64,000 bases of DNA from contig CAYRMI010000004.1 in NCBI GenBank assembly GCA_964425625.1, positions 5,444-69,443 of the forward strand, given 5' to 3'. A program made the translations under genes and the position numbers. Below are positions 5,353 through 34,771 of this stretch, one piece after another (the first letter of the stretch is position 1; every line of letters begins with the position of its first letter). The DNA is from an uncultured Candidatus Saccharibacteria bacterium (GTDB lineage: Bacteria > Patescibacteriota > Minisyncoccia > Phycocordibacterales > UBA918). A model generated the notes under the pieces. The model did no database searches. It saw only the letters and a program-made list of their open reading frames with translations, and had not been told where the DNA came from.

Positions 5353-5363
5353 GAATAGCTTAC

Positions 5364-6078: not shown

Positions 6079-6095
6079 GGTAGAATGTTATAGAC

Positions 6096-6890: not shown

Positions 6891-6895
6891 CTTTT

Positions 6896-7492: not shown

Positions 7493-7512
7493 AATGTTAC
7501 AATGAGTAAAGT

Positions 7513-8250: not shown

Positions 8251-8251
8251 C

Positions 8252-12943: not shown

Positions 12944-13966
12944 TTATTTTTGTAAGGGGTGGAATTTGTGATGAGTGTCTTCGGCGTAGCGGTCTGAGGC
13001 ATGGACGTAGCGGGTGGTTGTCTCTAATGATTCGTGACCAAGGAGAATTTGGATAGCTGCGGGGTTGGCGCCTTGCTCAGCTAGGTAGGTAGCGTAACCA
13101 TGGCGGAGGGAGTGAGCACTGGTGGGGACGATAATACCAAGTAGTTCGCGGTAGCGTTTAATTTTTGACTGGAGGTAATTAGGGGAGATGTGCTTTTTCT
13201 TGTCGGTGGCATTAGCCCCTCTCTTCGCTACGAATAAGTAGGGAAGCTCATCATCACGCAGTTTTAGGTATTCACCGATGTGATTTTGGGCTCGCTCAGT
13301 TAAATAAATGAAACGTTGTTTTTTACCTTTACCCTCGATGAAGATCTTTCCGGTTTGATCAATCTGATTGCGACGGAGGTTGATGAGTTCGGAGATACGC
13401 ATACCACTGGCAAACAGTGTCTCGAGCATGGCGCGATTACGCAGGGCGACAAATTTATTTCTTTCATACTGCATAGGGGACTCAATCAACTTTACTAATT
13501 CTTCCATCTCAGAAATCTGCGGGTGGCGCTTCTCGCGTCGTAGGAGTTTGATGACACTGGGATCGACGGGTACGTCGTAGTCCATGTCGATGAGGTAGGT
13601 TAGGTAACGACGTAGTGAGGTGAGGTGGCGATTGATAGTACCGCTGGTCAGTTTTTGGTTGGATTCTTGGTTGGCAGCGGTTTTCCGGTCAGAGGAATTT
13701 AGGTACGCCTTGTATTGTTCGATGGTTCTTTTGGTTACCTTACTAAAGAGTAGGGAAGAGAGGTCGTTCTTAAGAAAATTGGCAAAGGTCTCCAAGTCGC
13801 GTTCGTAGTTGTATAAAGTTTCCCCGGAATAATTGTTGGCTTGGATATGTAATAAAAAATCATCGAGCGCCGGTAGGAGATCGGTGGAATCATTTTTATT
13901 TTTAGTAGTGGAATTATTTTTTCGCATATGACTACGGTGGGGAGTAGCTTCCCACATACTTAACAT
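12944..13966 (-). CDS. Tyrosine recombinase (XerC/XerD-like, phage-integrase family)
   Basis: Catalytic C-terminus LRHGYATYLAEQGANPAAIQILLGHESLETTTRYVH (HxxR ... Y). The N-terminal core-binding region LDDFLLHIQANNYSGETLYNYERDLETF is Xer-like. The true start may be the internal M at 13927. Confidence 0.8.
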   Translation of the reverse strand: MLSMWEATPHRSHMRKNNSTTKNKNDSTDLLPALDDFLLHIQANNYSGETLYNYERDLETFANFLKNDLSSLLFSKVTKRTIEQYKAYLNSSDRKTAANQESNQKLTSGTINRHLTSLRRYLTYLIDMDYDVPVDPSVIKLLRREKRHPQISEMEELVKLIESPMQYERNKFVALRNRAMLETLFASGMRISELINLRRNQIDQTGKIFIEGKGKKQRFIYLTERAQNHIGEYLKLRDDELPYLFVAKRGANATDKKKHISPNYLQSKIKRYRELLGIIVPTSAHSLRHGYATYLAEQGANPAAIQILLGHESLETTTRYVHASDRYAEDTHHKFHPLQK

Positions 13967-16815: not shown

Positions 16816-16929
16816 ATTTTAGAGGAGTAGCATATAGGTATTAGTAGCTAAAATTTAATTATTTGCGGTTTTATTCATAAGACACCAATAATACACATAT
16901 TACATTTATTGGCGCTCAGTCGTCATATC

Positions 16930-18993
16930 ATGAACACAAATATTCGAGGTTACAATCCTCTACAGAGGGTAATGTTAGCCGCAGCAGCGACCTTGGTCTT
17001 TGCTGGGATTTTTATTTTCGGATTCTTATTAAGCGTGAATTTTGTGCATGCTGTTACCACGGAAGATCTGCTCGATGCCGTACCATCAGGTAGCTTAGCG
17101 GAGTGGACAGTCAGCGATACCGGTGGTAATCCAATCTTCACTTACGAGGAGATTACCTCACCTTACGATAATTCTACCGCTATCAAAACCAGCGTGGATG
17201 GTAACACGATTATGAACTGTCCGACCAGATTTATCGCTCGTACTTATGAGTGGGGTGGAAACACTTCCTACACAGACCTCAAGGCATATCTTGCTTTCAC
17301 TTCCTCACTGAGTTACTACAATTTTCCCTATGTCGTAGTGGAAATATTTGATGAAGCTGATAATAAACTTGGCTACGAGGTCTATTATGGTAAAGATATT
17401 ATCGGTACTTATTACGAAGGTATTATAGCTGGAGACCCTACTAATTATACCGAGCTACCTGTTGCCGAGGGTGACGTAACAATCGACCTCTCGGCCATCG
17501 GATCTGATATAAATTTCAAGTATTTTAAACTTACTATCTCAAACTATACTTGTGAAGGTACAAACTCGCTTGTCTTCGACCATCTAAGAATTGTAAATGG
17601 CAGTTTTACTGGTGATACAGAAAACACTATTCCGGTAGCCAACCCCGATTCATTTACCGTGGAAGCTGGTGAGTTGTACGCCGGACAAGTGGCCGGATCA
17701 GATACTGATGGTGACCCGCTCACCTTTGAATCTACTACTCCTCCCATGTATGGCACACTCCACTTCAATTCTAATGGCAGTTTCACCTACGAAGCTGACT
17801 CAGATTATGCCGGAGATGATTCATTTGCCTTCAGACTATATGATGGAGAGGATTATTCTGCTCCAGCAACTATTAGTATCACCGTGACAGAACCTCCACC
17901 AGCAAAAGTGATAAAGCTGTTGATCTATAACCCAAATGTGTACGGTCCCGACGATGAAGAATGTAAAGGAGACTACGGCGCTCTACCCTATGAGTACTTA
18001 GAAGCCAATGATGTTGAGGTAACATTTTGGTGCAATGACACCATCGTTGATGCCGGTGTGTTAGCAAACTATGATGTACTCTATGTCGGACGAGCCCGCG
18101 CTAGTTATTATGGGGCAACCTACATTAATTCAACCGACCTAAAAAACTGGGTTTCTACTGGTGGTGGAGCCATACTAGAAAGCACCGGTGATAGTTTTGA
18201 ACCAGGAACCACAAACATGATTTGGCCAGGGATTTACGAGCTATTTGGCTATAACAATTGCCCCGTTATTGGTTCTTCCGATAATAGTGGCGGTGGCCCC
18301 TTGACTAAACTAATTGATCATCCAATCTGGGACGGAGTAGATGGACCGGTTGGAGACAGTAACACTGGACTCTATGATGATGAATTAGATGATTCATGTA
18401 TCGGAACAGGCGTTAAAATTGGAACATCAGGCTCATCCAAACAGAGCCCGATGGTAAACGAATTTGGTGCTGGACGTACCTATTCAGGAGTACTCGTTGA
18501 CTACACAATAAACGATGATTCACAAAGATACTTCCTAAATGTTGTCGACTGGGTGGCTCAAGGTGGTCGTGAGCGTGACATTAATCCACCGGTTATAACT
18601 CTGAATGGTAAATCAGTTATAAAAATTGAAGTCGGCGACAGTTATATTGATGAAGGTGCCACAGCAGAGGATGACATTGATGGTGTGGTCGAAGTTGTTA
18701 CTACGGGGACAGTAGATACCAATACTCCCGGCACTTATGAAATCACCTACACTGCTCAGGACTATAGTGGAAACATTGCCACTCTGACAAGGTCTGTTAA
18801 GGTCGCTGAAATTGACAAAGGCTCTGGTGGCAGTGCTACTCGTGTAGGAGAGCGAAAACAAACCAGAGAAACTGCGCAAGGTCTGGTTCTTGGAGCCCAG
18901 ACTTCCGCTACGCCTTTGGAGCAAATGAGACAGATTAGATTACAACTTATCAAGATTCTTAAACTTTACGTTGAACTACTAAAGAAAGGTTAA
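16930..18993 (+). CDS. Large secreted/surface protein with signal-anchor, VCBS/cadherin-like Ig domain and DUF5011-like Ig domain
   Basis: N-terminal MNTNIRGYNPLQRVMLAAAATLVFAGIFIFGFLLSVNFVHA. The VCBS/cadherin-like Ig-domain pattern is ANPDSFTVEAGELYAGQVAGSDTDGDPLTFE...YGTLHFNSNGSFTYEADSDYAGDDSFAFRLYDGEDYSAPATISITV. The DUF5011-like pattern is PPVITLNGKSVIKIEVGDSYIDEGATAEDDIDGVVEVVTTGTVDTNTPGTYEITYTAQDYSGNIATLTRSVKV. Confidence 0.55.
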   Translation: MNTNIRGYNPLQRVMLAAAATLVFAGIFIFGFLLSVNFVHAVTTEDLLDAVPSGSLAEWTVSDTGGNPIFTYEEITSPYDNSTAIKTSVDGNTIMNCPTRFIARTYEWGGNTSYTDLKAYLAFTSSLSYYNFPYVVVEIFDEADNKLGYEVYYGKDIIGTYYEGIIAGDPTNYTELPVAEGDVTIDLSAIGSDINFKYFKLTISNYTCEGTNSLVFDHLRIVNGSFTGDTENTIPVANPDSFTVEAGELYAGQVAGSDTDGDPLTFESTTPPMYGTLHFNSNGSFTYEADSDYAGDDSFAFRLYDGEDYSAPATISITVTEPPPAKVIKLLIYNPNVYGPDDEECKGDYGALPYEYLEANDVEVTFWCNDTIVDAGVLANYDVLYVGRARASYYGATYINSTDLKNWVSTGGGAILESTGDSFEPGTTNMIWPGIYELFGYNNCPVIGSSDNSGGGPLTKLIDHPIWDGVDGPVGDSNTGLYDDELDDSCIGTGVKIGTSGSSKQSPMVNEFGAGRTYSGVLVDYTINDDSQRYFLNVVDWVAQGGRERDINPPVITLNGKSVIKIEVGDSYIDEGATAEDDIDGVVEVVTTGTVDTNTPGTYEITYTAQDYSGNIATLTRSVKVAEIDKGSGGSATRVGERKQTRETAQGLVLGAQTSATPLEQMRQIRLQLIKILKLYVELLKKG

Positions 18994-19128
18994 CACTAGA
19001 AATAGTTAAATAACAACGACCATCAGCTTCTGTAAACTGATGGCCGTTGCTTTATTTAACCTTGACTTAAGGTACTTATTGGTACATTATTTCCGCCAGA
19101 AGCCACACGCCGTGTGGTAATAACGGAG

Positions 19129-19401
19129 ATGATGATGCTCGAGACTAGTATTGTAATTCAAGCTGAAATCGAAGGATTCACAGGCTTGACTCAGGTCCGG
19201 ACGGTCAACCGTCTGCGTTACCTTGGTATCGACCCTAAGCTCATCGATGCGGCGATGGTGGCCGTTGCCGATTCGCCAGCCTACCGTCAAGCCGAGGCCG
19301 ACATCATTCTCTTTGCCATGGAGCTCTGGTCGGTAGAAGACGATATCGCTCTGGAAATCCTCAATGGCCAAAGGCCGTGCCCAGTATCAAATCATCACTA
19401 G
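19129..19401 (+). CDS. Small GC-rich hypothetical protein (about 90 aa)
   Basis: RBS ACGGAG precedes the ATG triplet run (MMMLETSIVIQAEIEGFTGL...). The ORF ends 3 nt before a long hairpin plus T-tract. Third-codon positions are GC-rich, unlike neighbouring genes. An overlapping antisense ORF (19087..19371) looks less protein-like. Confidence 0.3.
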   Translation: MMMLETSIVIQAEIEGFTGLTQVRTVNRLRYLGIDPKLIDAAMVAVADSPAYRQAEADIILFAMELWSVEDDIALEILNGQRPCPVSNHH

Positions 19402-19404
19402 ACC

Positions 19405-19474
19405 CCGCCACACCCCGGGTAAGAAAGAACAATCGTTCCGACTTCCCCATCACGGTGTGGCGGTTCTTTCGTTT
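19405..19474 (+). terminator. Long GC-rich hairpin (10-bp stem enclosing a 39-nt structured loop) plus T-tract: terminator of the small ORF, or attenuator upstream of the YhhQ-family gene
   Basis: CCGCCACACC ... GGTGTGGCGG followed by TTCTTTCGTTT. The inner part contains GAAC-AATC-GTTC. Confidence 0.5.
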
Positions 19475-19592
19475 AAAATCACCAAGTTTCGCTTTAACTT
19501 TTTTCTCAAACTGTTTGTATTTTCATTTCTCCGCTATTATTACCGTTTGACCTCACTTTGCAGTCCGGGAAAACAATGATAGGCTCCCCTAT

Positions 19593-20204
19593 ATGCAAAG
19601 TAAGAATTATATCCATGCAATGATGCTCGCTATGGCGGGCGTGATTGTGGTTTCAAATGTACTGGTGCAGTATCCACTCGGACCGTGGCTCACCTATGGT
19701 GCCCTTACCTATCCCCTAGCCTTCTTGATTACCGATTTGGTGACGAGAAACCATGGTCTAAAAGTCGCCAAGCAAGTGATACTCGTCGGCCTTATTGTCG
19801 GTATACTGGCTTCACTTTTAGCTAGTTTTTTTGATGTCACCACCTTGAGGATTGCCATTGCTTCAGCGACGGCATTCTTGGTCGCCCAAATTCTAGACGT
19901 AAAGGTATATCTGCGTCTCCAACACCTTGCTTGGTGGAAGACTCCGGTCCTCTCTTCGGTTATTGGTTCGATAGTAGATACCTTTATTTTCTTTAGTATT
20001 GCCTTTTCGGCTACTACTTACGCCCTTCTCTTGGATGGTAATGTTTGGGCCCAAGAAATTGCCCCGCTGTTAGGAATTGGTCGCCAATTCCCTCTCTGGG
20101 TCTCTCTAGCCGTAGCTGACCTTGGTATAAAGCTTCTCATGGTACTGGTCCTTCTCCTTCCCTATCGACTGCTGATCCAAAACAAGCCCCATATAATTAG
20201 ATAG
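19593..20204 (+). CDS. YhhQ/VUT family (DUF165) putative queuosine-precursor transporter
   Basis: FLITDLVTRNHGLKVAKQVILVGLIVGILAS and AFLVAQILDVKVYLRLQHLAWWKTPVLSSVIGSIVDTFIFFSIAFS align with E. coli YhhQ FLATDLTVRIFGAPLARRIIFAVMIPALLIS ... ALGQILDVHVFNRLRQSRRWWLAPTASTLFGNVSDTLAFFFIAF. Confidence 0.75.
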   Translation: MQSKNYIHAMMLAMAGVIVVSNVLVQYPLGPWLTYGALTYPLAFLITDLVTRNHGLKVAKQVILVGLIVGILASLLASFFDVTTLRIAIASATAFLVAQILDVKVYLRLQHLAWWKTPVLSSVIGSIVDTFIFFSIAFSATTYALLLDGNVWAQEIAPLLGIGRQFPLWVSLAVADLGIKLLMVLVLLLPYRLLIQNKPHIIR

Positions 20205-20435
20205 AAAAATATTAAGGTTTTAGGGTCTCCATTGCCCCTAAACACTCATCGCCATGTTGCCTTCTCTTCTGAAGTAAATTTTTGCATAAATCAAGCAGTA
20301 GTTCTGCTGGTGCAATTGTACCATCCACCAGTTTTTACAACGTACGACAGAAAATTTTTTCAATGGACAATCGTTAATAATCATGTAATAATACTAAAGC
20401 AGGCAAATTTACCTGTTTTTTTGGGTGAGGAAAAA

Positions 20436-21122
20436 ATGCACTTGATCAAAAAGGCGCTCGTCGCCATTTCTTTGTTCTTCGCGGTCTTCGGCCTCGCTCA
20501 TGCGGCGCCATCGTACTGCAACAATAGAGTGCCTGGCGACAATCCACTGAAGAACGACAGTTCACCGGTGCTGTCGACCAGTGACATGACCTACAACAAC
20601 AAGTCGGCCAATGACTGCTACGGTCATGTCGCCAATGACAACGACACCGTCAGTGACATCAACGCTCTGGCTTGGGGAAACGGCTGGCTCTTTGCTGCTC
20701 GAGATAACATCGGTAGCAGGGACAGAAGCAACACCGTCCTCGGCATTGCCTGGAACATCATTGCCTCTGAAGGCGATGAAGGGAGCTGGACCCTCACCGG
20801 CGTCGATAGGAATGGGACAAACCCAGCCAACCTCGGCGACACTTTCGACTTCGTCGGCGTGCTCAAAGGAGGCAACGGTTGGGCGGCCTACCTGTTTGAT
20901 AATGTCGTGTTCGATGGCAGCGACGGCGGCACTTACGCCATCGAGTTCTTCAACAAGGGTGGAAAGATACCAGACCTCTCACACCTCTCGATCTACGCTC
21001 GTGAAGGGGGCAAACCAACCAACGACGTGCCCGAGCCGGGCACGCTCGCTCTCGCTGGCTTCGCTCTTCTCGGCCTTGCGCTGACGGGTCGTCGTCAACG
21101 CCAACAGCCGCGCCTCGGCTAA
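20436..21122 (+). CDS. PEP-CTERM sorting-signal secreted protein (GC-rich gene)
   Basis: RBS GAGGAAAAAATG. Signal peptide MHLIKKALVAISLFFAVFGLAHA. The C-terminus VPEPGTLALAGFALLGLALTGRRQRQQPRLG is a PEP motif plus TM helix plus Arg-rich tail. The larger track ORF 20232..21122 is trimmed to ATG 20436. Confidence 0.6.
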   Translation: MHLIKKALVAISLFFAVFGLAHAAPSYCNNRVPGDNPLKNDSSPVLSTSDMTYNNKSANDCYGHVANDNDTVSDINALAWGNGWLFAARDNIGSRDRSNTVLGIAWNIIASEGDEGSWTLTGVDRNGTNPANLGDTFDFVGVLKGGNGWAAYLFDNVVFDGSDGGTYAIEFFNKGGKIPDLSHLSIYAREGGKPTNDVPEPGTLALAGFALLGLALTGRRQRQQPRLG

Positions 21123-21147
21123 AGGTCGCCACAAGCGCGACCACTGA

Positions 21148-21178
21148 TGCCTCCCTACCCAGGGAGGTATTTCTTTTT
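21148..21178 (+). terminator. Intrinsic terminator after the PEP-CTERM gene
   Basis: CCTCCCT-ACCCA-GGGAGG followed by TATTTCTTTTT. Confidence 0.6.
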
Positions 21179-21310
21179 AAAAGTATGATAATCATACTCT
21201 ATTTTCTTAATCACCACCCTACATTTGTAGTCTCTACTATCTTGCAAATTCTGCGCTATTTACACACATTTGTTTATAAAGTATAGTCTCAAATCGAAAG
21301 GAGGTGATGT

Positions 21311-21442
21311 ATGACCAAATCACCAAAAAAGTCGCCCGTGAAGGCACCCCGCCTACCACGGTCGCCAGCAAACTTGCGAAGTCTTTCGCGCTCGCTCAAA
21401 GCAGTTCTTCTTGCTCTCCGTCGCCGGAGAACGGCCAAATGA
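21311..21442 (+). CDS. 43-aa highly basic SPKK-motif peptide (histone-H1-like/nucleoid-associated candidate)
   Basis: Promoter TTTACA-17 nt-TATAGT (21259-21287), strong RBS AAAGGAGG 6 nt before ATG 21311, and a hairpin terminator directly after the stop. Translation: MTKSPKKSPVKAPRLPRSPANLRSLSRSLKAVLLALRRRRTAK. This replaces the overlapping 124-aa track ORF 21304..21678, which reads through the terminator. Confidence 0.4.
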   Translation: MTKSPKKSPVKAPRLPRSPANLRSLSRSLKAVLLALRRRRTAK

Positions 21443-21448
21443 AACACG

Positions 21449-21490
21449 TACCAGACCCGAGCATTTGCTCGGGTCTTCCTATTTTTGCTT
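21449..21490. terminator. Bidirectional intrinsic terminator
   Basis: AGACCCGAGC-ATTT-GCTCGGGTCT is a perfect 10-bp stem followed by TCCTATTTTTGCTTTATT. It sits between convergent genes 21311..21442 (+) and 21525..22001 (-). Confidence 0.75.
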
Positions 21491-21524
21491 TATTATTTTC
21501 AGTGGTTACTCACTTTGTTATTGC

Positions 21525-22001
21525 TTATTCATTATTTTTCAATTCTCGCATTTTATTTCTGCGTTTTTCAATTTCATCAAGCAAAGTGTCAACAAAAAAA
21601 CCTTCTTTATGGGCATCCATCGCTCGGCGAATTACTAATTCAGCTTCGACTTCAGTAGCATTTGGGAACTCATCTTGAAGCAGATCTTTAACAAACTTGG
21701 TAAGAGGTCCTAGTAGGCTTTCAAGTGTTTCATTTATACTAATTCCATTTGCTAGCGAAGTATCAATCTCATAGCCTACAACCACCAGTTCTCTTGCTTT
21801 ATCAATATTTTGTAAGTTCTGTGATTCCATTATGCGGTCTAGTTGGGGTACTAGATGATCATCCAGCTCGTCGTTTGGAGCTTTTAATTTTTCTTCGATC
21901 AATCGTGCGCCAATACTACTCAGTTTTTCTAGTCGATTAATTTCATTCTCGACATCTTTACGTTTCCTCATCTGTTCCTCTGATAGAAAAAATTCATTCA
22001 T
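21525..22001 (-). CDS. Hypothetical coiled-coil protein
   Basis: 158-aa ORF rich in E/K/L heptads (MNEFFLSEEQMRKRKDVENEINRLEKL...). No recognisable motif. Confidence 0.4.
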   Translation of the reverse strand: MNEFFLSEEQMRKRKDVENEINRLEKLSSIGARLIEEKLKAPNDELDDHLVPQLDRIMESQNLQNIDKARELVVVGYEIDTSLANGISINETLESLLGPLTKFVKDLLQDEFPNATEVEAELVIRRAMDAHKEGFFVDTLLDEIEKRRNKMRELKNNE

Positions 22002-22164
22002 ATAGCTGACAGTATAACAAAATTTTGACTGATTGTTGATGAATTACAACACTCTCTAAATAATATTTATATTTTTCTTCCCCTTTTCTCTATTAATTTT
22101 TAACCACAGTCCTCTACTTCATAGATTCCCTTTGGTCTATACAAATACTGATATAATTTAGAAC

Positions 22165-23283
22165 ATGAAAAGAAATCAAACTTCTGGTGGTGGAGGAATA
22201 AAACTAATCGGATTAATAATCATCCTAGCTGGGCTTTTAATTCTCCTAGATCCAGAATCAGTCATAAGTAATGGTGAGAGGGGTGTCGTAAAAGAAAGCG
22301 AAGGGTGGATATTTATCCTAGTAGGTTCAGTTTTACTAATATTGCAATTTGGCTGGCAAAGTTTAATGAAAAAACTAAATGAAGACAAAAATATACCCAA
22401 TTTACTGCAGATAAAAACACATAATTCAAAAAGGAACTACTTTTATACCCTCTGGGTAAATCTTCCGGTAATTATTCTTATTTTTCTATTTACAGTATTT
22501 GGTCCCAGCGACACACCTTGGACAGGTTTTTTTAAAGTCATGTCCGGGTACTTACTTTTTGTCCTAAGTGGAATATGGCTTTTCCAATTAATAAGGTTAG
22601 TATTGAAACGGTCTCAGGAGAGAGACGTCGAACAGATTTTAAATTGGGGAAAGTCTCTATCTTATGAAGAAATGACAGATGGAAGTTTTCATTTCCCTAC
22701 CAAGATATTTGACTATGGCACAAACGGCAAAGTAGAGTACTTATTAAAAAAAAGTATAGCTGGAATGAGTGTCGGAATATTCAAGTATAGCCACACACAA
22801 AAAACTGGAAACAATAGTGTGGCTGTAAGTTACTCAGTAGTTAATATTGAGACCTTGGACGAGCTACCTTCATTTAATTTGGCTTTGAAAATTACACCAA
22901 AGGAAAATGAACTTGATATTTCGGTAGGAGAAACAGAGAAAAGAATAAATGAAGAAATTAGTAATGCTTCTAAAATTAACTTTACTACAGCCACTAATGA
23001 TGTTTTTTGCTTAAATGTGTCACAAAAGTTTGAAATTGAAGCATTGCAAATATTTCAACAAGATATTATTGAAGAGTTTGGAAAAAATTGGCCACACTTC
23101 ATTATAATCGGTGAGGGTAAAAATCTAATTGCCATAACTACGGAAGTAAATAATACGGAAGAAAATTTCAAAGTAATGGCAAATCTGGCCGATTTTCTGG
23201 TAGAAAACATTGCTACTAAGATAAGTCTTATCGGAAAATCTGTCGAAGAGATGAAGGAGGTTATGAAGAAACAACAATATTAA
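22165..23283 (+). CDS. Hypothetical membrane protein (4 TM segments plus cytoplasmic domain)
   Basis: 372-aa ORF with hydrophobic segments LIGLIIILAGLLILL, WIFILVGSVLLILQF, LPVIILIFLFTVF and YLLFVLSGIWLFQLI. No recognisable catalytic motifs. Confidence 0.45.
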   Translation: MKRNQTSGGGGIKLIGLIIILAGLLILLDPESVISNGERGVVKESEGWIFILVGSVLLILQFGWQSLMKKLNEDKNIPNLLQIKTHNSKRNYFYTLWVNLPVIILIFLFTVFGPSDTPWTGFFKVMSGYLLFVLSGIWLFQLIRLVLKRSQERDVEQILNWGKSLSYEEMTDGSFHFPTKIFDYGTNGKVEYLLKKSIAGMSVGIFKYSHTQKTGNNSVAVSYSVVNIETLDELPSFNLALKITPKENELDISVGETEKRINEEISNASKINFTTATNDVFCLNVSQKFEIEALQIFQQDIIEEFGKNWPHFIIIGEGKNLIAITTEVNNTEENFKVMANLADFLVENIATKISLIGKSVEEMKEVMKKQQY

Positions 23284-23385
23284 TGAGTCCGTCACACGAC
23301 TTGTCCACCACATTCATTGGTGAAAATGCACCAGGTATTATTTTCAAATTTTTTCTAAAGGTTTATTGTCGTCATTTCATCGTGT

Positions 23386-23460
23386 GGAAAAGGAGCCAGT
23401 GTGAAAAGGGATACACTAGAGAAAAGGAGTCAGTGAGAAAAGGGGTCAGGAGCCTTTTAC
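23386..23460. repeat. Four degenerate tandem copies of a roughly 17-nt GAAAAGGRGYCAG unit. The last copy forms the hairpin motif GAAAAGGGGTCAGGAGCCTTTTA, which recurs at 25181-25203.
   Basis: GGAAAAGGAGCCAGTGT / GAAAAGGGATACACTAGA / GAAAAGGAGTCAGTGA / GAAAAGGGGTCAGGAGCCTTTTAC. The second locus, 25181-25216, reads GAAAAGGGGTCAGGAGCCTTTTATCAGGAGCCCTTTACC. Confidence 0.6.
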
Positions 23461-23579
23461 CATAGCCGTTGCTTCAGGCGGGTTTTTTTACACTAGAAAT
23501 TTCACTACAGATTTGTAACTTATATTGGACTTATCTCAATTCTCAGAATCATTGCTATCACTTCACTAAGTTTTGCGTA

Positions 23580-23849
23580 CTACTCAACTTTCACATCAAG
23601 CGCAATTGAAGCGAGAATCTTAGCCACCCCAATACACGCTTCACGACTACCATAGAACACCGTCACCAAGCCAAACTGCTCTGCTACATCGGCGTACATA
23701 ACTGCCTGCATTTCCGTACAGTCGGTCGCTTTCATGAGTTGATCAACGACCGTATCAAACGAATGACAATCACAATTGTAGAGAATCACCTCATGATTCA
23801 TGTTCTGTACCGATACGGCTTTTAATTCCTGCTTTTTCTCTGGGTTCAT
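23580..23849 (-). CDS. clpS: ClpS-like ATP-dependent Clp protease adaptor
   Basis: HEVILYNCDCHSFDTVVDQLMKATDCTEMQAVMYADVAEQFGLVTVFYGSREACIGVA aligns with E. coli ClpS [58 protein letters not shown]. Confidence 0.6.
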   Translation of the reverse strand: MNPEKKQELKAVSVQNMNHEVILYNCDCHSFDTVVDQLMKATDCTEMQAVMYADVAEQFGLVTVFYGSREACIGVAKILASIALDVKVE

Positions 23850-24075
23850 GTTAATTTAATATCAGCTATTTACCAGCAATTTCTATTGAATCAAAATTCA
23901 TATTCAAATATTCCTGAAGTCTGGTCAGAGAGATACGCTCTGTCCTGCCTATCTTAAACACCGGCAAAGCGCCAGAGGCGATGGCTTTTTTGTTGTTAGT
24001 TGCTACTTTTTGCTTTACCACACAGTTTTCTATTTCATTGTCCCTGTCCTCTTTTATTCCTTAAGTTTAGAATTA

Positions 24076-25050
24076 TTATAACCGATACCAACCACCAGCT
24101 AAATCAAGAGACTCGGCTGCACCGGTACGAAGATCTATTCTTATTAGGGGCGTACTGGGTGTCGAAGTAGGATCACCTGGACAATTTGGTCCAAATTGTT
24201 TTTCAACGGTAATGTGTCTATAGTAACCAAAATCTTCTGGACTGATAACTAAACAGTCCTCAGGATAGGTGGTTAATTTTCGTATGGCCTCCCACGTCTT
24301 GTTTAATACTTCAGTATCAGGTAAAAACTCGCCGACCTCATCAATGGTGGATTTTTGTGAATAAATAAAGGCGGCTTTTATTGTTTGAACTAAATCGTTC
24401 TGAAGCTCAGATCCCTCTTCACTATCCGCGCAACTTGCTTGTGGTCCAACATATAAAATAAAGTAATCCCCAAATTCGAAAACTCCGGAATTATCCTCTA
24501 AGGATAACCTTTTTAGTTCTAAAGGGTTGGACATCCAGTGCACCATTTCTGATGATTGATTTTCTTTTTCATATGACTCAACCAACAACTCTTTGTTGAT
24601 TTTAATAACACGACCCAATGGCCCGTGTTTAGGTTGACAATACTCTAATGTGCCACCAAATGGTATAAGTTCTTCGGTTGAAAATAACACTGAGCTACTT
24701 TCATTTGTTGGATTTCTGTTTACTGTATACAGTAAGTTACCAAGACCAGATGTAACCAATTCAAGATTAATTTCTGGAATTAGACACGTATCTCCATTAC
24801 CACAGACAATATAATTGGATTCTTCAATTTTTTCTGGGTTGACTACCGGAATTGATTCAAAACTAATATTACTAGAATCGTAATTTTGAGGCATTACCGA
24901 TATCCTGCCCAAATAAAATCCCACGAAAGGTAAAAGTGTAAATAGCACCAATGCTAAATATTTAGAAAGCGGTGTAACCGTCGTAAACTGCTTTTTCAAA
25001 TTAAAGTCTTGCGAACTGAGCCCCTCTTCTACTATTGGTTGGTTTTCCAT
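24076..25050 (-). CDS. Hypothetical membrane-anchored extracytoplasmic protein
   Basis: Single N-proximal TM helix (LALVLFTLLPFVGFYL) followed by a roughly 270-aa domain with several Cys. Start taken as MENQPIVEEG (M13 of track ORF 24076..25086). Confidence 0.45.
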   Translation of the reverse strand: MENQPIVEEGLSSQDFNLKKQFTTVTPLSKYLALVLFTLLPFVGFYLGRISVMPQNYDSSNISFESIPVVNPEKIEESNYIVCGNGDTCLIPEINLELVTSGLGNLLYTVNRNPTNESSSVLFSTEELIPFGGTLEYCQPKHGPLGRVIKINKELLVESYEKENQSSEMVHWMSNPLELKRLSLEDNSGVFEFGDYFILYVGPQASCADSEEGSELQNDLVQTIKAAFIYSQKSTIDEVGEFLPDTEVLNKTWEAIRKLTTYPEDCLVISPEDFGYYRHITVEKQFGPNCPGDPTSTPSTPLIRIDLRTGAAESLDLAGGWYRL

Positions 25051-25180: not shown

Positions 25181-25216
25181 GAAAAGGGGTCAGGAGCCTT
25201 TTATCAGGAGCCCTTT
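25181..25216. repeat. Second copy of the GAAAAGGGGTCAGGAGCCTTTTA stem-loop motif, with a partial reiteration
   Basis: The 23 nt at 25181-25203 are identical to 23437-23459. Lies in the promoter region of gene 24076..25050. Confidence 0.6.
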
Positions 25217-25753: not shown

Positions 25754-26035
25754 TTTGGAACGGGTTGAGCAAATCAAATTTAATCACATAGCACAATAAT
25801 GCGCAATATATTTTGAGTAACTCTATTATTTCATCTGATTGTAAAAGAAAGTTGTTACAAAAAATAATAAAAATATTAATAGTTAAAATATAAATAGATA
25901 CATGGGTAAGATCTTAGAAAAAGCGTGTTGTAAGTTTAAACCTGCTTTTTGCTACATCCCACAATATGTAGCTTTATTGTCCCCGTCCCCTTTTTACGCT
26001 ATTTAATTAGACTGCAAATGAGAAAATCGAAAGCC

Positions 26036-27118
26036 TTAGATTTTCATCTCCTCAAGTCCTTTGTGGCAATTAGCTAAGTCTGAAGCAAGTGGGTTTTCTG
26101 CCCAAGCGCCAAGAATCGTTTGAATCACCAGCTGCGCATGTTCTATAAGCTGTTCCTTGGGAGCGTTGAAGCGTTCAAACGTGACACTACCATCACGCTT
26201 GTAGTCGCTAATAAGTTCGCTGATGTTACTTATCACATCACCCGACTTCAGCATCAATGATTCAGGCGAGAACTGACGTATTTCCTCTAGCGCCGCCTCC
26301 TTGCGTTCAAGCCATGATAACCCTCTATCTTTCTCAGTGACGCTATCTACCAGCCCTGCCACTATGTCGCCAAAACGCTCCGAGAGCATTTTTTTAGTTA
26401 CTTTGTGGTCAACTACACTATCTTCAATAGTGTCATGAAGAATCCCAGCCACTACAAGATCTTCACTTGCCCCTGCTTGTGAGAGAATGAGTCCGACAGT
26501 AAGCGGATGGGTGACATACGGAACCGCCTTCCCTTTCCTAAACTGAGGCTCACCAGTAAGTTGATGCACTTCAATTGAGAAATGAATCGCGTCTTGAATT
26601 TTGTTTGTGTAGATCATATTAATTTCATTATTGGCAATAATTTGTTCTCGTTTAGAATTCACTTCATCAGCCAGTTGGTTACACAATTTCGAGATTTGTT
26701 CTGCTGTTCCATTTTTCAGTACATCACTTACATCCCAAACACCCAGGAACTCTTTATTAGATTCTACTCTATCTCCGCTATTCCACCACACCTTTGGTGA
26801 TTCCTGTCCGGCAGGCCAATCGTACTGCAATCTTGGATATCCTGAATAAGTAACACTCTTTGATCCTTTCTTCGGTGACACTGGGGTATAAACTCGGTAA
26901 ATTAGATCATTACCACCTTCCCAATCAGTTGATTCATGCATTGAGTAGTGATAAAGCTGACTACATTCCTTGCACTGTAGTAGCATTTCCCTGTCATGAT
27001 CTTCATCAATATAGGTATCGATAATATCGAACATTTGCATACCGACTTGCTTCATATACTCCGGGTCGTTCCAAAGACGACATTGTGTGGGAGCTGTCTG
27101 TTTAGTTTGTTTTTCCAT
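26036..27118 (-). CDS. Fusion protein: unknown Cys-containing N-terminal domain plus C-terminal RelA/SpoT-type HD domain (small-alarmone-hydrolase/Mesh1-like)
   Basis: C-terminal half has YVTHPLTVGLILSQAGASEDLVVAGILHDTIEDS, matching the (p)ppGpp-hydrolase HD motif HPLxVAxILxxLxxDxxTxxAALLHDxxEDT. The first roughly 190 aa (CRLW ... CKECSQLYHY ...) has no recognisable family. Confidence 0.6.
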   Translation of the reverse strand: MEKQTKQTAPTQCRLWNDPEYMKQVGMQMFDIIDTYIDEDHDREMLLQCKECSQLYHYSMHESTDWEGGNDLIYRVYTPVSPKKGSKSVTYSGYPRLQYDWPAGQESPKVWWNSGDRVESNKEFLGVWDVSDVLKNGTAEQISKLCNQLADEVNSKREQIIANNEINMIYTNKIQDAIHFSIEVHQLTGEPQFRKGKAVPYVTHPLTVGLILSQAGASEDLVVAGILHDTIEDSVVDHKVTKKMLSERFGDIVAGLVDSVTEKDRGLSWLERKEAALEEIRQFSPESLMLKSGDVISNISELISDYKRDGSVTFERFNAPKEQLIEHAQLVIQTILGAWAENPLASDLANCHKGLEEMKI

Positions 27119-27335
27119 AATATTTATCTTAATTGTATAAAAGTTTTACGAGGAAACAAAAAACGGCTAGGAGATTTGATCCAGTCGTAAAACTGAATGA
27201 AATCTCCCAACCGTCTTAATGAGGTTAGTGATGAATGACTTGTGGCTTCCCGCAGATTTCCCAGGTTACCTACCAAGCCAAAGCTCGGAGACAGACATCA
27301 TAGTCATCCCTGACTACTCTTTTATTATAACACGT

Positions 27336-27800
27336 TTAATACCGATACGAAAGGCCGACCGCATCACTCCAGTAAGCAATGTTGCGTGGTTCAACTGGAT
27401 CGCCTGCTTCCCTCACCCGTTCCATCATTAAGTTATAAAATTCTTCCGCTACCTCTAGCGAATGTAGAAGTCTAGTACTTTTCAGTATTCGAGTAATCCG
27501 GAGGTGATTGTGGTCCATAACCGTCAGCCAGTGATAGTTCTCCAGGTAAAACCTAATCATCCGCTTTAAGGCTAGAGTTTGGTTAGCTAGAGCGATAGGA
27601 TCAGCTTTGATTAATTCTACCTCAGCCATATTCAAGACCGGTGCATCATGGACATTTTGACTTTCTTCAAGGAGCGGAAAGAGCCATTGGATGTAGTCAT
27701 GTTCGACTTCCAGCCACTCGTCATTTTGTTGCAATACTTCAGCAAAAGTTCTGCCGTTGTTATCGACTCCAGTTCCATTCAAGAAATCTGCTACTGACAT
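27336..27800 (-). CDS. OGFr_N-like domain protein (opioid growth factor receptor conserved region homologue)
   Basis: HDYIQWLFPLLEESQNVHDAPVLNMAEVELIKADP and DHNHLRITRILKSTRLLHSLE match OGFr_N blocks (HQYIQWLFPLREPGVNWHAKPLTLREVE ... HNNLRITRILKSLGELGLE). Confidence 0.6.
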   Translation of the reverse strand: MSVADFLNGTGVDNNGRTFAEVLQQNDEWLEVEHDYIQWLFPLLEESQNVHDAPVLNMAEVELIKADPIALANQTLALKRMIRFYLENYHWLTVMDHNHLRITRILKSTRLLHSLEVAEEFYNLMMERVREAGDPVEPRNIAYWSDAVGLSYRY

Positions 27801-27802
27801 AC

Positions 27803-28132
27803 TTATTGATTTACCACCCGTTCCGGCTCACCTCGATATGGAGCAATCACACCCTCGGCTTCCAAAGCATCAAGTAACGTAAAAGCTCTCTGATAACTGA
27901 TTTTAAAATGTTTCTGAAGTAATGATACTGAACAGCGTCCAGTCTCTTTTACATACGCTGTAGCAGCCTGTAGTAAACCATCAGGACCATACTCATCTAC
28001 TTCAGGCGCTATAGGCTCTATAGTCTCCTCAGCAATCAGTACTCGCTCCACCCGATGTACTTTCTCATACAGCTCACTCACCATCGCCACTAATGATTCG
28101 ATATCCTTTTCTAGTTCATGATTGTCGCTCAT
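27803..28132 (-). CDS. Small protein with C-terminal FtsK-gamma winged-helix DNA-binding domain
   Basis: LLQAATAYVKETGRCSVSLLQKHFKISYQRAFTLLDALEAEGVIAPYRGEPERVV aligns with FtsK gamma [56 protein letters not shown]. The N-terminus is coiled-coil. The stop is 2 nt from the OGFr-like start. Confidence 0.6.
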   Translation of the reverse strand: MSDNHELEKDIESLVAMVSELYEKVHRVERVLIAEETIEPIAPEVDEYGPDGLLQAATAYVKETGRCSVSLLQKHFKISYQRAFTLLDALEAEGVIAPYRGEPERVVNQ

Positions 28133-28325
28133 AAGTTTTTGTATAATAATCTATCACTTTCTTTTTGGTAACATTTTCTTAACTTTAAAGTTATCCGCAC
28201 TTACTAAAATTTCAGTACGTCAAGGGTATGGACAATTTGTACCCACCCTTGACCAAGTTCCATATCCCGTTGCTTCATTTTTTGAATATACTGCTTGGCA
28301 TCCAACGAATCAATTAAAACACGTA

Positions 28326-29054
28326 CTACTTTTTAACATCAACGTACAAAATTGGATTTTGACTCCCTTGGCTCATGAAATGCGTAACTGATTTATATCG
28401 GTAACGGTCGCATATCTCTTTGGGCGCTACTTTACCGTTAAACTCCCAGCGTCCAGGAGCTTCCTTAGATTGGTACCATTCCGACACTAGGTATACCTCG
28501 CGAATAATTCCCAAATACACGGCACAAGCATACTGGTACTTATGAACTTTCGCACTCACCTTCCAATGCTTTCTGGTAACTTCGTAAAGTGCTGGGCCAC
28601 TCATGCCATATTTATAGGCTTTGTTTATCCGGATTAGTACCAGTGGGTCTGCAATGACCGCTGGTTTAGCCTCATACTGAATTTCAATGTCTTCAATTTT
28701 TCTGATACCGGCTTCAGAGGTATAGTGACCTGACATGATATTTGTCAGAGCTATTTTTTGCACTGATTCGATGTAGTCAATCAATGATGCTTCAACAGCA
28801 AAGGCCTGATCTTCAGTAAGACCGTGCCTAATAATCATGTGTTGGACTTCTCTTCCTGCTGCCCGAATGGCTTTAATGGTGGCAATTTTCTCCACTTCTT
28901 TTATGTCCACTATTTCTGACGCTTCAACATGAGCGTAAATTCTATTTCCCTTTCCTTTTCCAACGTAAAATACCTTCTTGGTTCGTGGGTCAATTAAGGC
29001 ATATACGTAGAATTTTATTTTCTCGATGGTTGATTGTGATAGACGGGTTTTCAT
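28326..29054 (-). CDS. GIY-YIG nuclease domain protein with uncharacterised C-terminal domain
   Basis: N-terminus FYVYALIDPRTKKVFYVGKGKGNRIYAHV is a canonical GIY-YIG motif (YxYxL ... YVGKG ... R ... H). The roughly 150-aa C-terminal domain has no recognised motif. Confidence 0.65.
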   Translation of the reverse strand: MKTRLSQSTIEKIKFYVYALIDPRTKKVFYVGKGKGNRIYAHVEASEIVDIKEVEKIATIKAIRAAGREVQHMIIRHGLTEDQAFAVEASLIDYIESVQKIALTNIMSGHYTSEAGIRKIEDIEIQYEAKPAVIADPLVLIRINKAYKYGMSGPALYEVTRKHWKVSAKVHKYQYACAVYLGIIREVYLVSEWYQSKEAPGRWEFNGKVAPKEICDRYRYKSVTHFMSQGSQNPILYVDVKK

Positions 29055-29085
29055 AATGTATATTGTGTTCTTGATTATTAAATAA

Positions 29086-30606
29086 TTATATCTTCTTAAC
29101 TATACTCTCTAGCACCTCCCATATCTTCACCATCGCCAAAGTATCTAGTCTGCAATACTCCAACAAAGCATTTGTCTTCCTTTGCTTTTCTTCTTCATCA
29201 TACTCCCCCAGAGCAATCCGATTCCAAGTATCAGAAGCTGTCCCCCCTTCTTGAATCTCTAGATCCTTGTATGAAAGCTCTGGCACAAGAGTTGGCAATA
29301 CCAGCTTGATGGTTGTCCTGCCTAGAAATCCAGGATGAACATACACCGCTGTCTTTCCACCAAATGGCTCAATTAAGTCTACAATTCTATCCTGCACACC
29401 AGCAATAAATTCCTGGTATCGAGGAACCCGTTCCGCCAGCTGTTTATTAACCATCATTTCAAAAGTCTTATTCCAGACCAAAACACTCCCAGAGGCCGGT
29501 AATTGCGCTTGCATGGCGGCTAAAAAGCCTTCATCAGGATTTGTATCTCCGGTATGAATAAAGTCCGTATGGACCACTTCTGCCCCTGGCGAATCAATCA
29601 CATGAAGCGAGAACTGAAAAGGAATTTGTTGGTATGGTCTGTAGCCAAAGAAGCGCGGTATAGCTGACGGGTACGACTCATAATCAATAAAAGCCAGTGG
29701 GTACTCCAACCTAGCCAAAAACTCCCCGACCCCAGCTTCGTCTATATACGTTCGCCCAGACTGGGCCACATCGACCTGCCTGCGTTGGTTATCAGTCAGT
29801 TCAAAATCCACTGGAACATCATGAATATCGATAATTTCATCTTCAATCAGAGCCTCTAGTTTCTTTTTGCTGTTTCCAATTCGCGATATCTGATGCACTG
29901 AGTACTCGGGTAACTCAGGATTAGAATAGGCAAAAGTAGTGCAGTGATTATTTTTAGACTTACTCCAGCAGTCACAGTGCCCCGCCGGTTCACTTTCTTT
30001 AAGCAGGTACTCTCGCACCCCTGCCATTTGACCTTCAATGTCTAAAATGAGTGCATTTACTTCATCAGTAAAATTTAGTTTTAGAAAAAGCTCAGGCACG
30101 AACAACTCTCCCGAACGCACATACTGCTTATTCAATCTCACAAGATTTAGAGTTCCCAGGGGAATATTCACAGCGTCCATTACAACTTTCTGAAAAGCCA
30201 AGTCAATCAAATACTCCTGCTCCCGACGTCCCCCTTCCCCATCACCTTCTCGACTGGCAGATGAAGATTTTACCTCATACAGATCATAGACCTCCGTCCT
30301 TTCATTCCAAACAATAATATCCGCGACCGCCAAGTATTCACCTGTACTAAACACCGGCTGATAAATTATCGGAGTACGTTTAGCAATGAGCTCATTTGTG
30401 TATGCGGTATCATTTCTATCCTCCACCAATACTCCTCCGGGAAACAAATCCCGAGCCAATTCATCAATAACGTTACCAGTTTCAATAATATTCAACTCAA
30501 ACCCAGAAAGCGGGTTCGCCTTATACACCTCCGGCCGATGCACCTTAAGCCACGCATTTTTATTACACTCCCGAGCGATGAGAAAATCTGTTTTTGAAAG
30601 GGTCAT
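29086..30606 (-). CDS. Cas4/RecB-like PD-(D/E)XK nuclease plus DUF2779 (RNase-H-like/DEDD-like) domain protein
   Basis: N-terminus MTLSKTDFLIARECNKNAWL resembles the DUF2779-family start LSKSxFxxGxQCPKxLWL. PD-(D/E)XK residues: VADIIVWNE ... YEVKSS. C-terminal region FIDYESYP ... YCRLDTLAMVKIWEVL has acidic motifs like 3'-5' exonuclease Exo I/III. Confidence 0.55.
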   Translation of the reverse strand: MTLSKTDFLIARECNKNAWLKVHRPEVYKANPLSGFELNIIETGNVIDELARDLFPGGVLVEDRNDTAYTNELIAKRTPIIYQPVFSTGEYLAVADIIVWNERTEVYDLYEVKSSSASREGDGEGGRREQEYLIDLAFQKVVMDAVNIPLGTLNLVRLNKQYVRSGELFVPELFLKLNFTDEVNALILDIEGQMAGVREYLLKESEPAGHCDCWSKSKNNHCTTFAYSNPELPEYSVHQISRIGNSKKKLEALIEDEIIDIHDVPVDFELTDNQRRQVDVAQSGRTYIDEAGVGEFLARLEYPLAFIDYESYPSAIPRFFGYRPYQQIPFQFSLHVIDSPGAEVVHTDFIHTGDTNPDEGFLAAMQAQLPASGSVLVWNKTFEMMVNKQLAERVPRYQEFIAGVQDRIVDLIEPFGGKTAVYVHPGFLGRTTIKLVLPTLVPELSYKDLEIQEGGTASDTWNRIALGEYDEEEKQRKTNALLEYCRLDTLAMVKIWEVLESIVKKI

Positions 30607-30680
30607 TTTATTTTAAATTACAACACAAATTTAAGAGTTTTATTGTCCTTGACCCATTTCCACCCATTTCCATTATTTTA

Positions 30681-31355: not shown

Positions 31356-31418
31356 GTGAAAATTATGACACAGTTTCCCAGTTTATATTGTACCTGTCCA
31401 CTTTTCCTTTATTATACT

Positions 31419-31889: not shown

Positions 31890-31927
31890 AACTTAACCAG
31901 ATCAAACACAATAGATCAATAGGTGTC

Positions 31928-34231: not shown

Positions 34232-34233
34232 AA

Positions 34234-34578: not shown

Positions 34579-34619
34579 GGTTTATACTAAAATGTAACAT
34601 TTTAAAGCTTAATCCTCAA

Positions 34620-34766: not shown

Positions 34767-34771
34767 TCAAA

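Follow-up and report, generated by a model that had tools for sequence, protein, structure and literature searches.

The window analysed here is a 64-kb stretch of contig CAYRMI010000004.1 (assembly GCA_964425625.1), and our subject is the segment of it at 19.0-21.5 kb. This segment carries ORF88, which encodes a small protein of a rare family; a gene for a transporter of the YhhQ/Vut_1 family (here YhhQ); a gene for a protein with a PEP-CTERM sorting tail; and a 43-codon open reading frame (ORF) for a very basic peptide. The initial annotation took these together as one GC-enriched island and proposed for it either horizontal acquisition or assembly chimerism. We consider it likely that the segment is instead a mosaic lying in a variable zone of the chromosome, in which a native YhhQ gene stands next to a PEP-CTERM gene from a high-GC, Burkholderiales-type donor, together with ORF88 and the peptide ORF; both the donor and the direction of transfer are what we infer.

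Composition of the segment

Sliding GC computed in 200-nt windows reaches 0.545-0.555 at 19100-19400, 0.545-0.60 at 20500-21200 and 0.515 at 21300-21500. It dips to 0.35-0.44 at 18900-19100, 19400-19700, 20100-20500 and 21100-21300, and is 0.44-0.49 across YhhQ. Because of the dips between the peaks the segment is best seen as three GC-rich patches and not as a uniform island. The enrichment reported in the initial annotation is real, but YhhQ and the spacers are near the 42% of the host (42.2% for the whole window), and the 50-58% GC given there for the coding sequences holds for ORF88, the PEP-CTERM gene and the 43-aa ORF and not for YhhQ (0.474). Its list of genes (a small GC-rich ORF, YhhQ, a PEP-CTERM protein and a small basic peptide) stands, both named families scoring above curated cut-offs. 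We also find the strong terminators, as hairpins at 19014-19057, 21146-21171 and 21453-21476, and the AT-rich sequence from 21181, which is the same point at which homology ends with L010, a 96%-identical contig discussed below.

GC at third codon positions (GC3) was measured against the 61 other ORFs of the window (mean 0.399, standard deviation 0.076). The PEP-CTERM gene (GC 0.575, GC3 0.70) has the highest value in the window, with z of 4.0; ORF88 (GC 0.528, GC3 0.58) has z of 2.4, the 43-aa ORF (GC 0.561, GC3 about 0.50) 1.3 and YhhQ (GC3 0.49) 1.2. Amino-acid content was separated from synonymous choice by re-encoding each protein 2,000 times with host synonymous codon frequencies, and on this basis GC3 exceeds expectation with z = 9.8 for the PEP-CTERM gene, 3.6 for ORF88, 2.4 for YhhQ and 1.6 for the peptide, with DnaK and the 694-aa gene upstream of the segment at z ~0. 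In the PEP-CTERM gene the observed 0.70 compares with 0.39 expected for the same protein written in host codons. GC3 is unremarkable in DnaK, ribosomal protein L9 and the aminoacyl-tRNA synthetases, and expression-linked codon bias was thus ruled out as the cause of the high GC of these genes.

The 43-aa ORF is a different case. Its GC at second codon positions (GC2) is 0.60 and the GC expected with host codons is already 0.51, so that its GC is due mostly to a sequence rich in Arg, Pro, Ala and Ser and is not evidence of transfer. We suggest that any compositional island be split gene by gene in this way before acquisition is called, and that amino-acid-driven GC, as in this peptide, be told apart from synonymous GC.

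GC-rich genes are rare exceptions in the window, yet they are not limited to 19.0-21.5 kb. MetK and a DUF1294 gene are as deviant as the PEP-CTERM gene. MetK (36836-37828, reverse strand) has GC 0.56 and GC3 0.65, with z = 10 over the host-codon expectation, and is recovered in the Logan assemblies of runs SRR13355620, SRR13355621 and SRR13355622, with both flanks included in SRR13355620 and SRR13355622. It is short, at 330 aa, and falls narrowly under the NCBIfam metK cut-off (298.6 against 309.4); the phage collection yielded for it nothing beyond ~42% matches to the MetK of Streptococcus prophages, and these are uninformative as to origin. The DUF1294 gene (35360-35644, reverse strand) has GC3 0.65.

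The PEP-CTERM gene and its relatives

The tail of the PEP-CTERM protein (VPEPGTLALAGFALLGLALTGRRQRQQ) consists of VPEP, a hydrophobic transmembrane helix and RRQRQQ, and scores 28.7 bits against PF07589 (cut-off 20.7) and 17.3 against TIGR02595 (cut-off 16). The signal peptide, MHLIKKALVAISLFFAVFGLAHA/AP, was read directly from the sequence and has an equivalent leader in all aligned members of the family. The AlphaFold model (pLDDT 81.5, core >90) has helices at 3-17 and 201-222, and the central domain is predicted to be a beta-sandwich with a conserved Cys pair. The 230 nt upstream of the gene are AT-rich and hold a promoter-like site, and the GC-rich stretch runs from about the start codon to the hairpins at 21124-21180, which are probably the right end of the transferred fragment. 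With these bounds the transferred piece is about 0.75 kb (~20430-21180), that is one gene and its terminator.

The family search gave 43 homologues, Azohydromonas lata having one of them, and the 32 aligned members share Cys28/Cys61 and the motifs FDFVGVLKGG and LSHLS.Y.R. A pattern search of species-representative genomes with a 9-sequence alignment found relatives in Rubrivivax (53%), two Burkholderiales metagenome-assembled genomes (MAGs; 49% and 33%), Aquincola tertiaricarbonis (44%), Methylobacter (36%), Oleiphilaceae, and Gamma- and Alphaproteobacteria MAGs, and none in Patescibacteria. The relatives' loci are of 62-72% GC except in Methylobacter, whose gene has the 44% GC of its host; the loci of the family members P0004, P0020 and P0015 are of 65-70% GC.

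The neighbours of these relatives recur. At P0004 and P0020 the gene adjoins TPR and S8-peptidase genes. The locus of P0015 brings together a TPR gene, sugar-nucleotide genes and a histidine kinase / sigma-54 activator pair, a combination known from PEP-CTERM/exopolysaccharide (EPS) systems. In high-GC Pseudomonadota (L006, 469-6027, and L007, 7098-14618) the neighbours of family members are large TPR proteins and S8 (subtilisin-like) peptidases that carry Big_7 domains. The arrangement suggests a conserved functional module that would not have been transferred with the gene. No exosortase domain was found among the ~60 ORFs scanned in the window, no second PEP-CTERM tail in its six-frame ORFs, and no EPS genes near the PEP-CTERM gene within the window. 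A diderm host with several PEP-CTERM paralogues and an EPS locus is thus not what we see in the window, the part of the genome examined, and the host is labelled Patescibacteria. Matches to the named subfamilies PepA (NF033554), XDP1 (NF041927), EDSAP-1 (NF041538) and THxN (NF038125) are to the tail only, with 25-28 bits against cut-offs of 80-125.

GC-rich copies of the gene occur in at least four separate low-GC contexts, the first being the window together with L010. The copy in L028 (protein P0002, 60-63% identical to that of the window) has GC 0.57 in flanks of ~0.40 and lies downstream of tRNA-Cys and tRNA-Leu (51-125 and 354-439). That in L024 (1841-3173; 41%) has GC 0.645 and GC3 0.86 in a flank of 0.466, and stands beside an MgtC gene 72% identical to that of the window. 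Those in L025 and L026 (48-53%) have GC 0.58-0.59 in flanks of 0.46. The low-GC-context copies are 29-63% identical to each other and 39-57% identical to the Burkholderiales copies, and were monophyletic in 0/100 neighbour-joining bootstraps of a poorly resolved family tree. That they are not closer to each other and never form one group suggests repeated capture, although it is no proof of it.

YhhQ, the junctions and the origin of the segment

YhhQ matches its family profiles over its full length, with 77.3 bits against Pfam Vut_1 (PF02592; cut-off 27.2) and 79 against TIGR00697 (cut-off 50.95), and has 98.9 bits against the E. coli YhhQ equivalog model NF008406, for which the cut-off is 252. 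There are >4,500 homologues, and a scan of species-representative genomes gave no matches. A preQ1 riboswitch (Rfam preQ1-I/II/III) was not found upstream, either at E <= 10 in 18950-21600 or at the gathering threshold in the window. The protein would probably import queuosine precursors, as expected in a salvage-dependent organism.

The closest relative of YhhQ with readable context (P0066, 74% identical) is in L011, a locus of GCA_964607925.1 with 45.9% GC from a related Patescibacterium. L011 is collinear with the window at 41.0-48.8 kb (M23 peptidase, GluRS, MurG, FtsW, MraY, S11 carboxypeptidase and ScpB, with 62-78% amino-acid identity), and its EVE-domain gene and racemase are collinear with 11.1-12.9 kb, in a left block of ~10.3-12.9 kb. 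The L011 YhhQ gene sits between the two blocks, with an integrase and three or four small genes separating it from the left one, and its GC (0.455) is that of the locus (0.459). Neither ORF88 nor the PEP-CTERM gene is present in L011 beside its YhhQ. As YhhQ is in the same neighbourhood in both, it would be older than the split of the two organisms, and on this synteny it appears to be a native, resident gene of the Patescibacteria lineage that is only mildly GC-enriched. The initial annotation had named closest homologues in the same lineage as the observation to set against acquisition, and for YhhQ this is what was found.

The junctions are seen in two other assemblies. A 5,536-bp contig (L001) from the Logan assembly of SRR13355620 is identical (100%) to window 18657-24192 and has both segment borders inside it. 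L010, a contig of the separate NCBI assembly GCA_020049755.1, is 96% identical to window 18765-21180. Its genes follow one another as they do here (3' end of the 694-aa gene, ORF88, YhhQ, PEP-CTERM), and it is from a different strain that shares the left junction. Identity to L010 is 82-93% over the left spacer and ORF88, 99-100% at 19460-19960 and ~99% over the PEP-CTERM gene. A 100-nt patch inside YhhQ (19960-20060) has 84% identity, with 98-100% on either side, and looks like a short recombination tract. At 21160-21260 identity falls from 1.00 to 0.47, homology ending abruptly at 21180, after which L010 continues with a 660-aa TPM-domain gene, whereas in the window the peptide unit and two orphan genes of low GC follow. 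This uneven identity and the collapse at 21180 indicate that the locus is a recombination mosaic, with the right end of the PEP-CTERM fragment as a strain-level breakpoint. Against L010 the dN/dS ratios are 0.20 for ORF88, 0.06 for YhhQ and 0.15 for the PEP-CTERM gene (dS 0.41, 0.15 and 0.038 respectively), values that point to purifying selection on all three.

We suggest that the PEP-CTERM gene and its GC-rich terminator were acquired as a single gene of ~750 bp, and that the donor would have been a Burkholderiales-type bacterium of high GC from the Rubrivivax/Aquincola/Azohydromonas group. Upstream of the gene there is now a putative promoter region that is AT-rich and host-like, and purifying selection keeps the gene intact. 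The protein would be exported by Sec and display its beta-sandwich domain on the cell surface, anchored in the membrane by the C-terminal hydrophobic helix and the Arg-rich tail, and it would be processed by an exosortase only if the genome encodes one, there being none in the window. Horizontal acquisition, as first proposed, is thus retained for the PEP-CTERM gene, with its Burkholderiales and other Pseudomonadota relatives in 62-72% GC loci (bar Methylobacter), but not for the whole segment.

Several observations weigh against this account. The closest possible donor sequence is only 57-62% identical at the amino-acid level and the actual donor is thus unsampled, so that the direction of transfer follows from composition and distribution alone. 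The nearest homologue, P0002, is itself in AT-rich flanks, and the gene may therefore have come through another low-GC organism and not directly from Burkholderiales; the GC3 of 0.70 is also below the 0.80-0.91 of the closest genome matches. The gene has neither a tRNA gene nor a transposase beside it, and a search for att-like direct repeats around it and around the zone at 13-41 kb gave only short, weak matches. For YhhQ, the named homologues (<=59% identity) are from Rhodobacteraceae and a 71%-identical copy is in a contig with an RND efflux pump, and for these reasons an older exchange of YhhQ between phyla is possible. Finally the Patescibacteria label is based on the NCBI submitter's annotation.

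Of the other explanations the one that we take most seriously, while still thinking it on the unlikely side, is that the gene came through another low-GC genome, possibly of Patescibacteria, the family having circulated there after one or a few older captures. P0002 and P0003, the closest homologues (60-63%), have GC 0.57 in flanks of ~0.40 GC, the L024 copy has the MgtC neighbour noted above, the GC3 is under that of the closest Burkholderiales matches, and most transfers detected into Patescibacteria are from other Patescibacteria (PMC12455944). However it would be unexpected for copies to keep GC3 of 0.63-0.86 through 40-60% protein divergence in genomes of 40-46% GC, and the low-GC-context copies do not cluster and are no closer to each other than to Burkholderiales. 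We think it unlikely that the GC-rich genes were inherited vertically and owe their composition to selection on amino acids, on codon bias in highly expressed genes or on RNA structure. This is essentially correct for the 43-aa ORF. The PEP-CTERM protein is also rich in Gly, Ala and Asp (GC2 0.46), and genes of the ORF88 and PEP-CTERM families are GC-rich in several low-GC contexts, which could reflect a constraint intrinsic to the gene, but in the PEP-CTERM gene the excess is synonymous, highly expressed genes such as DnaK have ordinary GC3, the named family members are Pseudomonadota of matching GC, L011 has no copy beside its YhhQ, and the low-GC-context copies were never monophyletic, although in a tree of weak resolution.

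It is very unlikely that the whole of 19.0-21.5 kb was acquired as one island. The four genes are adjacent and on the same strand with terminators at both ends, three of the four are GC-rich, the segment is in a variable zone with an integrase gene 5 kb away, and ORF88, YhhQ and the PEP-CTERM gene are together in L010. However the syntenic YhhQ orthologue of L011, without ORF88 or the PEP-CTERM gene, largely refutes it. YhhQ and the spacers are also near host composition and affinities differ from gene to gene, that of YhhQ being with Patescibacteria and that of the PEP-CTERM gene with Burkholderiales, with ORF88 in a rare family absent from Burkholderiales loci. In addition dS against L010 differs tenfold between genes, L010 lacks the peptide unit, no repeats flank the segment, the window is without tRNA genes, and the nearest integrase is 5 kb off and has a counterpart in L011. 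An assembly or binning artefact, by which high-GC proteobacterial reads were joined into a Patescibacteria contig, is the least likely of all, and the chimerism raised in the initial annotation can be set aside. The source is a MAG and the borders of the GC-rich coding sequence are sharp, but the same junctions occur at 100% in the Logan assembly, and the left one, with the same gene order, recurs at 96% identity in a different strain (GCA_020049755.1). The GC-rich patch moreover amounts to one gene of 0.75 kb, which is bordered left and right, within one contig, by AT-rich sequence of host-like composition, the analogous GC-rich MetK gene was re-assembled with its flanks in two runs and recovered in a third, and three more unrelated assemblies have GC-rich homologues inside AT-rich flanks. 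A mosaic with a native YhhQ gene and a single captured PEP-CTERM gene thus remains our preferred reading.

The surrounding zone and related systems

The features discussed are collected in Table 1.

Table 1. Features of the segment at 19.0-21.5 kb and of its surroundings, with positions in the window
Feature	Position	Strand	Remarks
Tyrosine recombinase (phage-integrase family)	12944..13966	-	Pfam Phage_integrase 1e-32; left end of ~27-kb variable zone
694-aa secreted protein with Ig-like and cadherin-like domains	16909..18993	+	Upstream of segment; Pfam Bact_surface_Ig-like, Big_9, Cadherin_4/5
Terminator-like hairpin closing the 694-aa gene	19014..19057	+	Read from sequence; T-tail CTTTATTT
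Promoter-like site before ORF88	19062-19090	+	Scan
ORF88, 88 aa (95 aa from upstream GTG)	19135..19401	+	All-alpha; rare uncharacterised family
Stable hairpin after ORF88	19400..19474	+	10-bp GC-rich outer stem CCGCCACACC / GGTGTGGCGG, then TTCTTTCGTTT
YhhQ/Vut_1-family queuosine-precursor transporter	19620..20204	+	Alternative ATG 19593
Promoter-like site TGGACA, 17 nt, TG-AATAAT	20364..20392	+	Consensus scan 10/12 plus extended -10 TG; pattern match only
PEP-CTERM protein gene, 228 aa	20436..21122	+	PF07589, TIGR02595
Two GC-rich hairpins and T-run, PEP-CTERM terminator	21124..21180	+	Scan finds 21146-21171; stretch 61% GC
Compact unit for 43-aa very basic peptide	21259..21486	+	CDS 21311-21442, MTKSPKKSPVKAPRLPRSP...RRRRTAK
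PD-T4-3 homologue	28326-29054	-	Defence-gene cluster 26000-36600
DUF2779	29086-30606	-	Defence-gene cluster 26000-36600
Mrr-like type IV nuclease with topoisomerase zinc ribbon	30681-31355	-	Defence-gene cluster
767-aa Schlafen-type/Nhi-AbiO-like helicase fused to S24 (LexA-like) peptidase	31928-34231	-	Defence-gene cluster
MazG-like	34234-34578	-	Defence-gene cluster
AbiD	35663-36586	-	Defence-gene cluster
MgtC	38593-39159

ORF88 - a gene of foreign-like composition. Its codon composition is foreign-like without a donor that can be named, and its purifying selection against L010 shows it to be a real coding gene. A word-based search gave only 2 relatives, its own strain variants, and an exhaustive HMMER search of 1.84 billion representatives gave 18 small proteins of 76-139 aa with the pattern ETS.VIQA.IEG...VNRLR.LG...ALxxLNG. 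The AlphaFold model (pLDDT 85) predicts a five-helix bundle. There is no match in Pfam, NCBIfam or PHROG, none in PDB by sequence or fold, and none in the phage or plasmid collections. The VNRLRxLGI motif was considered as the helix-hairpin-helix of the RpoA alpha-CTD, and this was ruled out by profile comparison (0.2% probability). A homologue in L027 (253-516), 56% identical, has GC 0.56 and GC3 0.66 beside neighbours with GC3 of 0.34-0.52, and adjoins genes for a secreted 182-aa protein and a Wzy_C (O-antigen-ligase-like) membrane protein. The family was not found in the Burkholderiales PEP-CTERM loci.

The hairpin at 19014-19057, at the left edge of the island as first drawn, has 13-nt arms with one mismatch and a 10-nt loop, and was missed by the terminator pattern scan because its loop is over 8 nt. 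That at 19400-19474 folds with -29.7 kcal/mol (z = -4.3 against shuffles), has no Rfam match and is probably the ORF88 terminator; the one base by which the spacer between ORF88 and YhhQ differs from L010 is in the 3' arm of its stem. Rfam gave no credible RNA family at the gathering threshold in the window or at E <= 10 in 18950-21600, and the matches to Xoo2 (21124-21180), MIR9563 (19014-19057) and RybB are sub-threshold terminator-like hairpins and were rejected as family members.

The 43-codon ORF is plausible as a putative stand-alone basic-peptide gene. A scan gave a promoter-like TTTACA-17-TATAGT and a 10-bp terminator hairpin (21453-21476), and a GGAGGTG ribosome-binding site was read from the sequence 6 nt before the ATG. 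The peptide has an isoelectric point (pI) of 12.0 with 14 of its 43 residues K or R. The predicted fold of the stretch is more stable than those of shuffled sequences (z = -3.8), mainly owing to the terminator. The peptide has no family matches or homologues and no exact match in the protein collection. Gene finders predicted nothing at its position in L001 or the other assemblies examined, and the region is absent from L010. It may resemble small basic SPKK-type DNA-binding peptides and histone-H1-like bacterial proteins.

To the right of the 21180 breakpoint the two orphan genes at 21525-23283 encode a protein of 158 aa (reverse strand) and a 372-aa membrane protein (forward strand). They have GC of 0.36 and 0.34 and GC3 of 0.26-0.30, are without match in Pfam, PHROG or PADLOC and are absent from L010, and may be a separate low-GC insertion. 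To the left the 694-aa gene, whose 3' end is kept in L010, is host-like (GC 0.44, GC3 0.38, z = -0.4 against the host-codon expectation).

With regard to the chromosome, the DnaK of the window has the same sequence as MDQ5950910.1, to which the NCBI submitter annotation gives the label 'Patescibacteria group bacterium', and the DnaK-DnaJ locus is also found in GCA_030917085.1. The window has further housekeeping genes for DnaJ, L9, FtsW, MraY and ScpA, and for CysRS, GluRS, a class-II Asp/Lys/Asn-type tRNA synthetase and a Trp/Tyr-type tRNA synthetase. There is no tRNA or tmRNA gene in the window.

From the integrase-like gene at 12944-13966 to the M23 peptidase gene at 41136 the window has ~27 kb, against ~4.5 kb (4290-8790) in L011, where an integrase of weak similarity is at the matching position. 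A tyrosine recombinase gene stands at the start of the zone (12900-41100) and of its L011 counterpart alike, and YhhQ is found in each. In the window it holds TPM/LemA genes, the Ig-like surface protein, the genes of 19.0-21.5 kb, ClpS, HD-domain proteins, the PD-T4-3 homologue, DUF2779, the Mrr-like type IV nuclease, the Nhi/AbiO-like helicase-S24 fusion, MazG, AbiD, DUF1294, MetK, a rhodanese and MgtC. The region of ~13-41 kb is a plasticity and defence zone, the usual landing place of acquired genes.

Some other features of the window may be recorded. A 104-nt stretch of the DUF1294 gene (35367-35470) recurs at 34629-34732 with 89% identity, followed by a second repeat of 28 nt (to 34766), and the repeat at 34629-34766 may be a partial duplicate or remnant of that gene. 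A 26-nt sequence (GAAAAGGGGTCAGGAGCCTTTTACCA) is present at 23437-23462 and again, 96% identical and 1.7 kb away, at 25181-25206; the two copies flank ClpS and a 336-aa orphan gene, and there is a small hairpin inside each. At the left end a 115-aa ORF (149-496, forward strand) has GC 0.53 and GC3 0.57 with no family match, and the first 1 kb of the window is of 51% GC.

PEP-CTERM/exosortase protein sorting, reportedly described by Haft and colleagues in 2006, is a system of Gram-negative exopolysaccharide-producing bacteria, and Patescibacteria are not known to have the outer membrane of typical PEP-CTERM organisms. We found no literature linking PEP-CTERM or exosortase to bacteria of the Candidate Phyla Radiation (CPR), and none specific to the accession numbers. 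Cross-phylum capture by the ultra-small, host-dependent Patescibacteria is already documented, with few cases from Pseudomonadota, and the capture of the PEP-CTERM gene is best seen as a new example of a known process with an unusual cargo, a surface protein of a kind that in diderm bacteria normally goes with exosortase and exopolysaccharide systems. Strains that differ elsewhere have it almost unchanged, intact and under purifying selection, and there are similar copies in other low-GC genomes; for these reasons it may hint at which bacteria its hosts live on and how they are attached. It also raises the question of what role a PEP-CTERM tail has without the canonical sorting machinery.

Imaging has shown Patescibacteria that live within flocs of Zoogloea (PMC11393006), and Gao et al. 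2018, cited in that paper, reportedly showed that floc formation requires PEP-CTERM proteins. It is a decidedly tentative proposal, and rather doubtful, that several low-GC bacteria, among them two that are Patescibacteria or relatives of these, have time and again captured and retained PEP-CTERM surface proteins like those made by their neighbours or hosts, which would likely be floc-forming Burkholderiales. If it is true, the captured proteins would be host-mimicking matrix or adhesion proteins, by which an epibiont would embed in, or be tolerated by, the exopolysaccharide/PEP-CTERM matrix of its host, possibly with no exosortase of its own; this host-mimicry is speculative.

In comparison with known systems, the protein of the window has the signal peptide, variable extracellular domain, VPEP, helix and Arg cluster of the PEP-CTERM/exosortase system, and its Pseudomonadota relatives are beside TPR genes, with an S8 peptidase or a PrsK/PrsR-like kinase-activator pair in some loci. 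It differs in being a lone gene in a Patescibacteria chromosome, with no exosortase, EPS locus or second PEP-CTERM protein in the 64 kb, and its similarity to the named PEP-CTERM subfamilies is limited to the C-terminal tail. YhhQ falls in the YhhQ/VUT family (PF02592, TIGR00697) over its full length and above both cut-offs, but is far under the cut-off of the E. coli YhhQ equivalog and has no preQ1 riboswitch upstream. The 43-aa ORF is like the SPKK-type peptides in starting with SPKK/SPxK-like repeats and in being very basic (its pI is 12), but has no detectable homology to any family, and gene finders do not predict it in the assemblies examined. Genomic islands and single-gene transfers into Patescibacteria have been described as coming mostly from other Patescibacteria and occasionally from Pseudomonadota (PMC12455944). 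Like those islands, the variable region of the window combines recombinase and defence genes with a gene whose composition deviates and whose affinity lies outside the CPR; it differs from them in that the case is a single gene of ~0.75 kb, in that this gene encodes a surface protein with a sorting signal and is neither metabolic nor regulatory, and in that similar GC-rich copies of it recur in other low-GC genomes.

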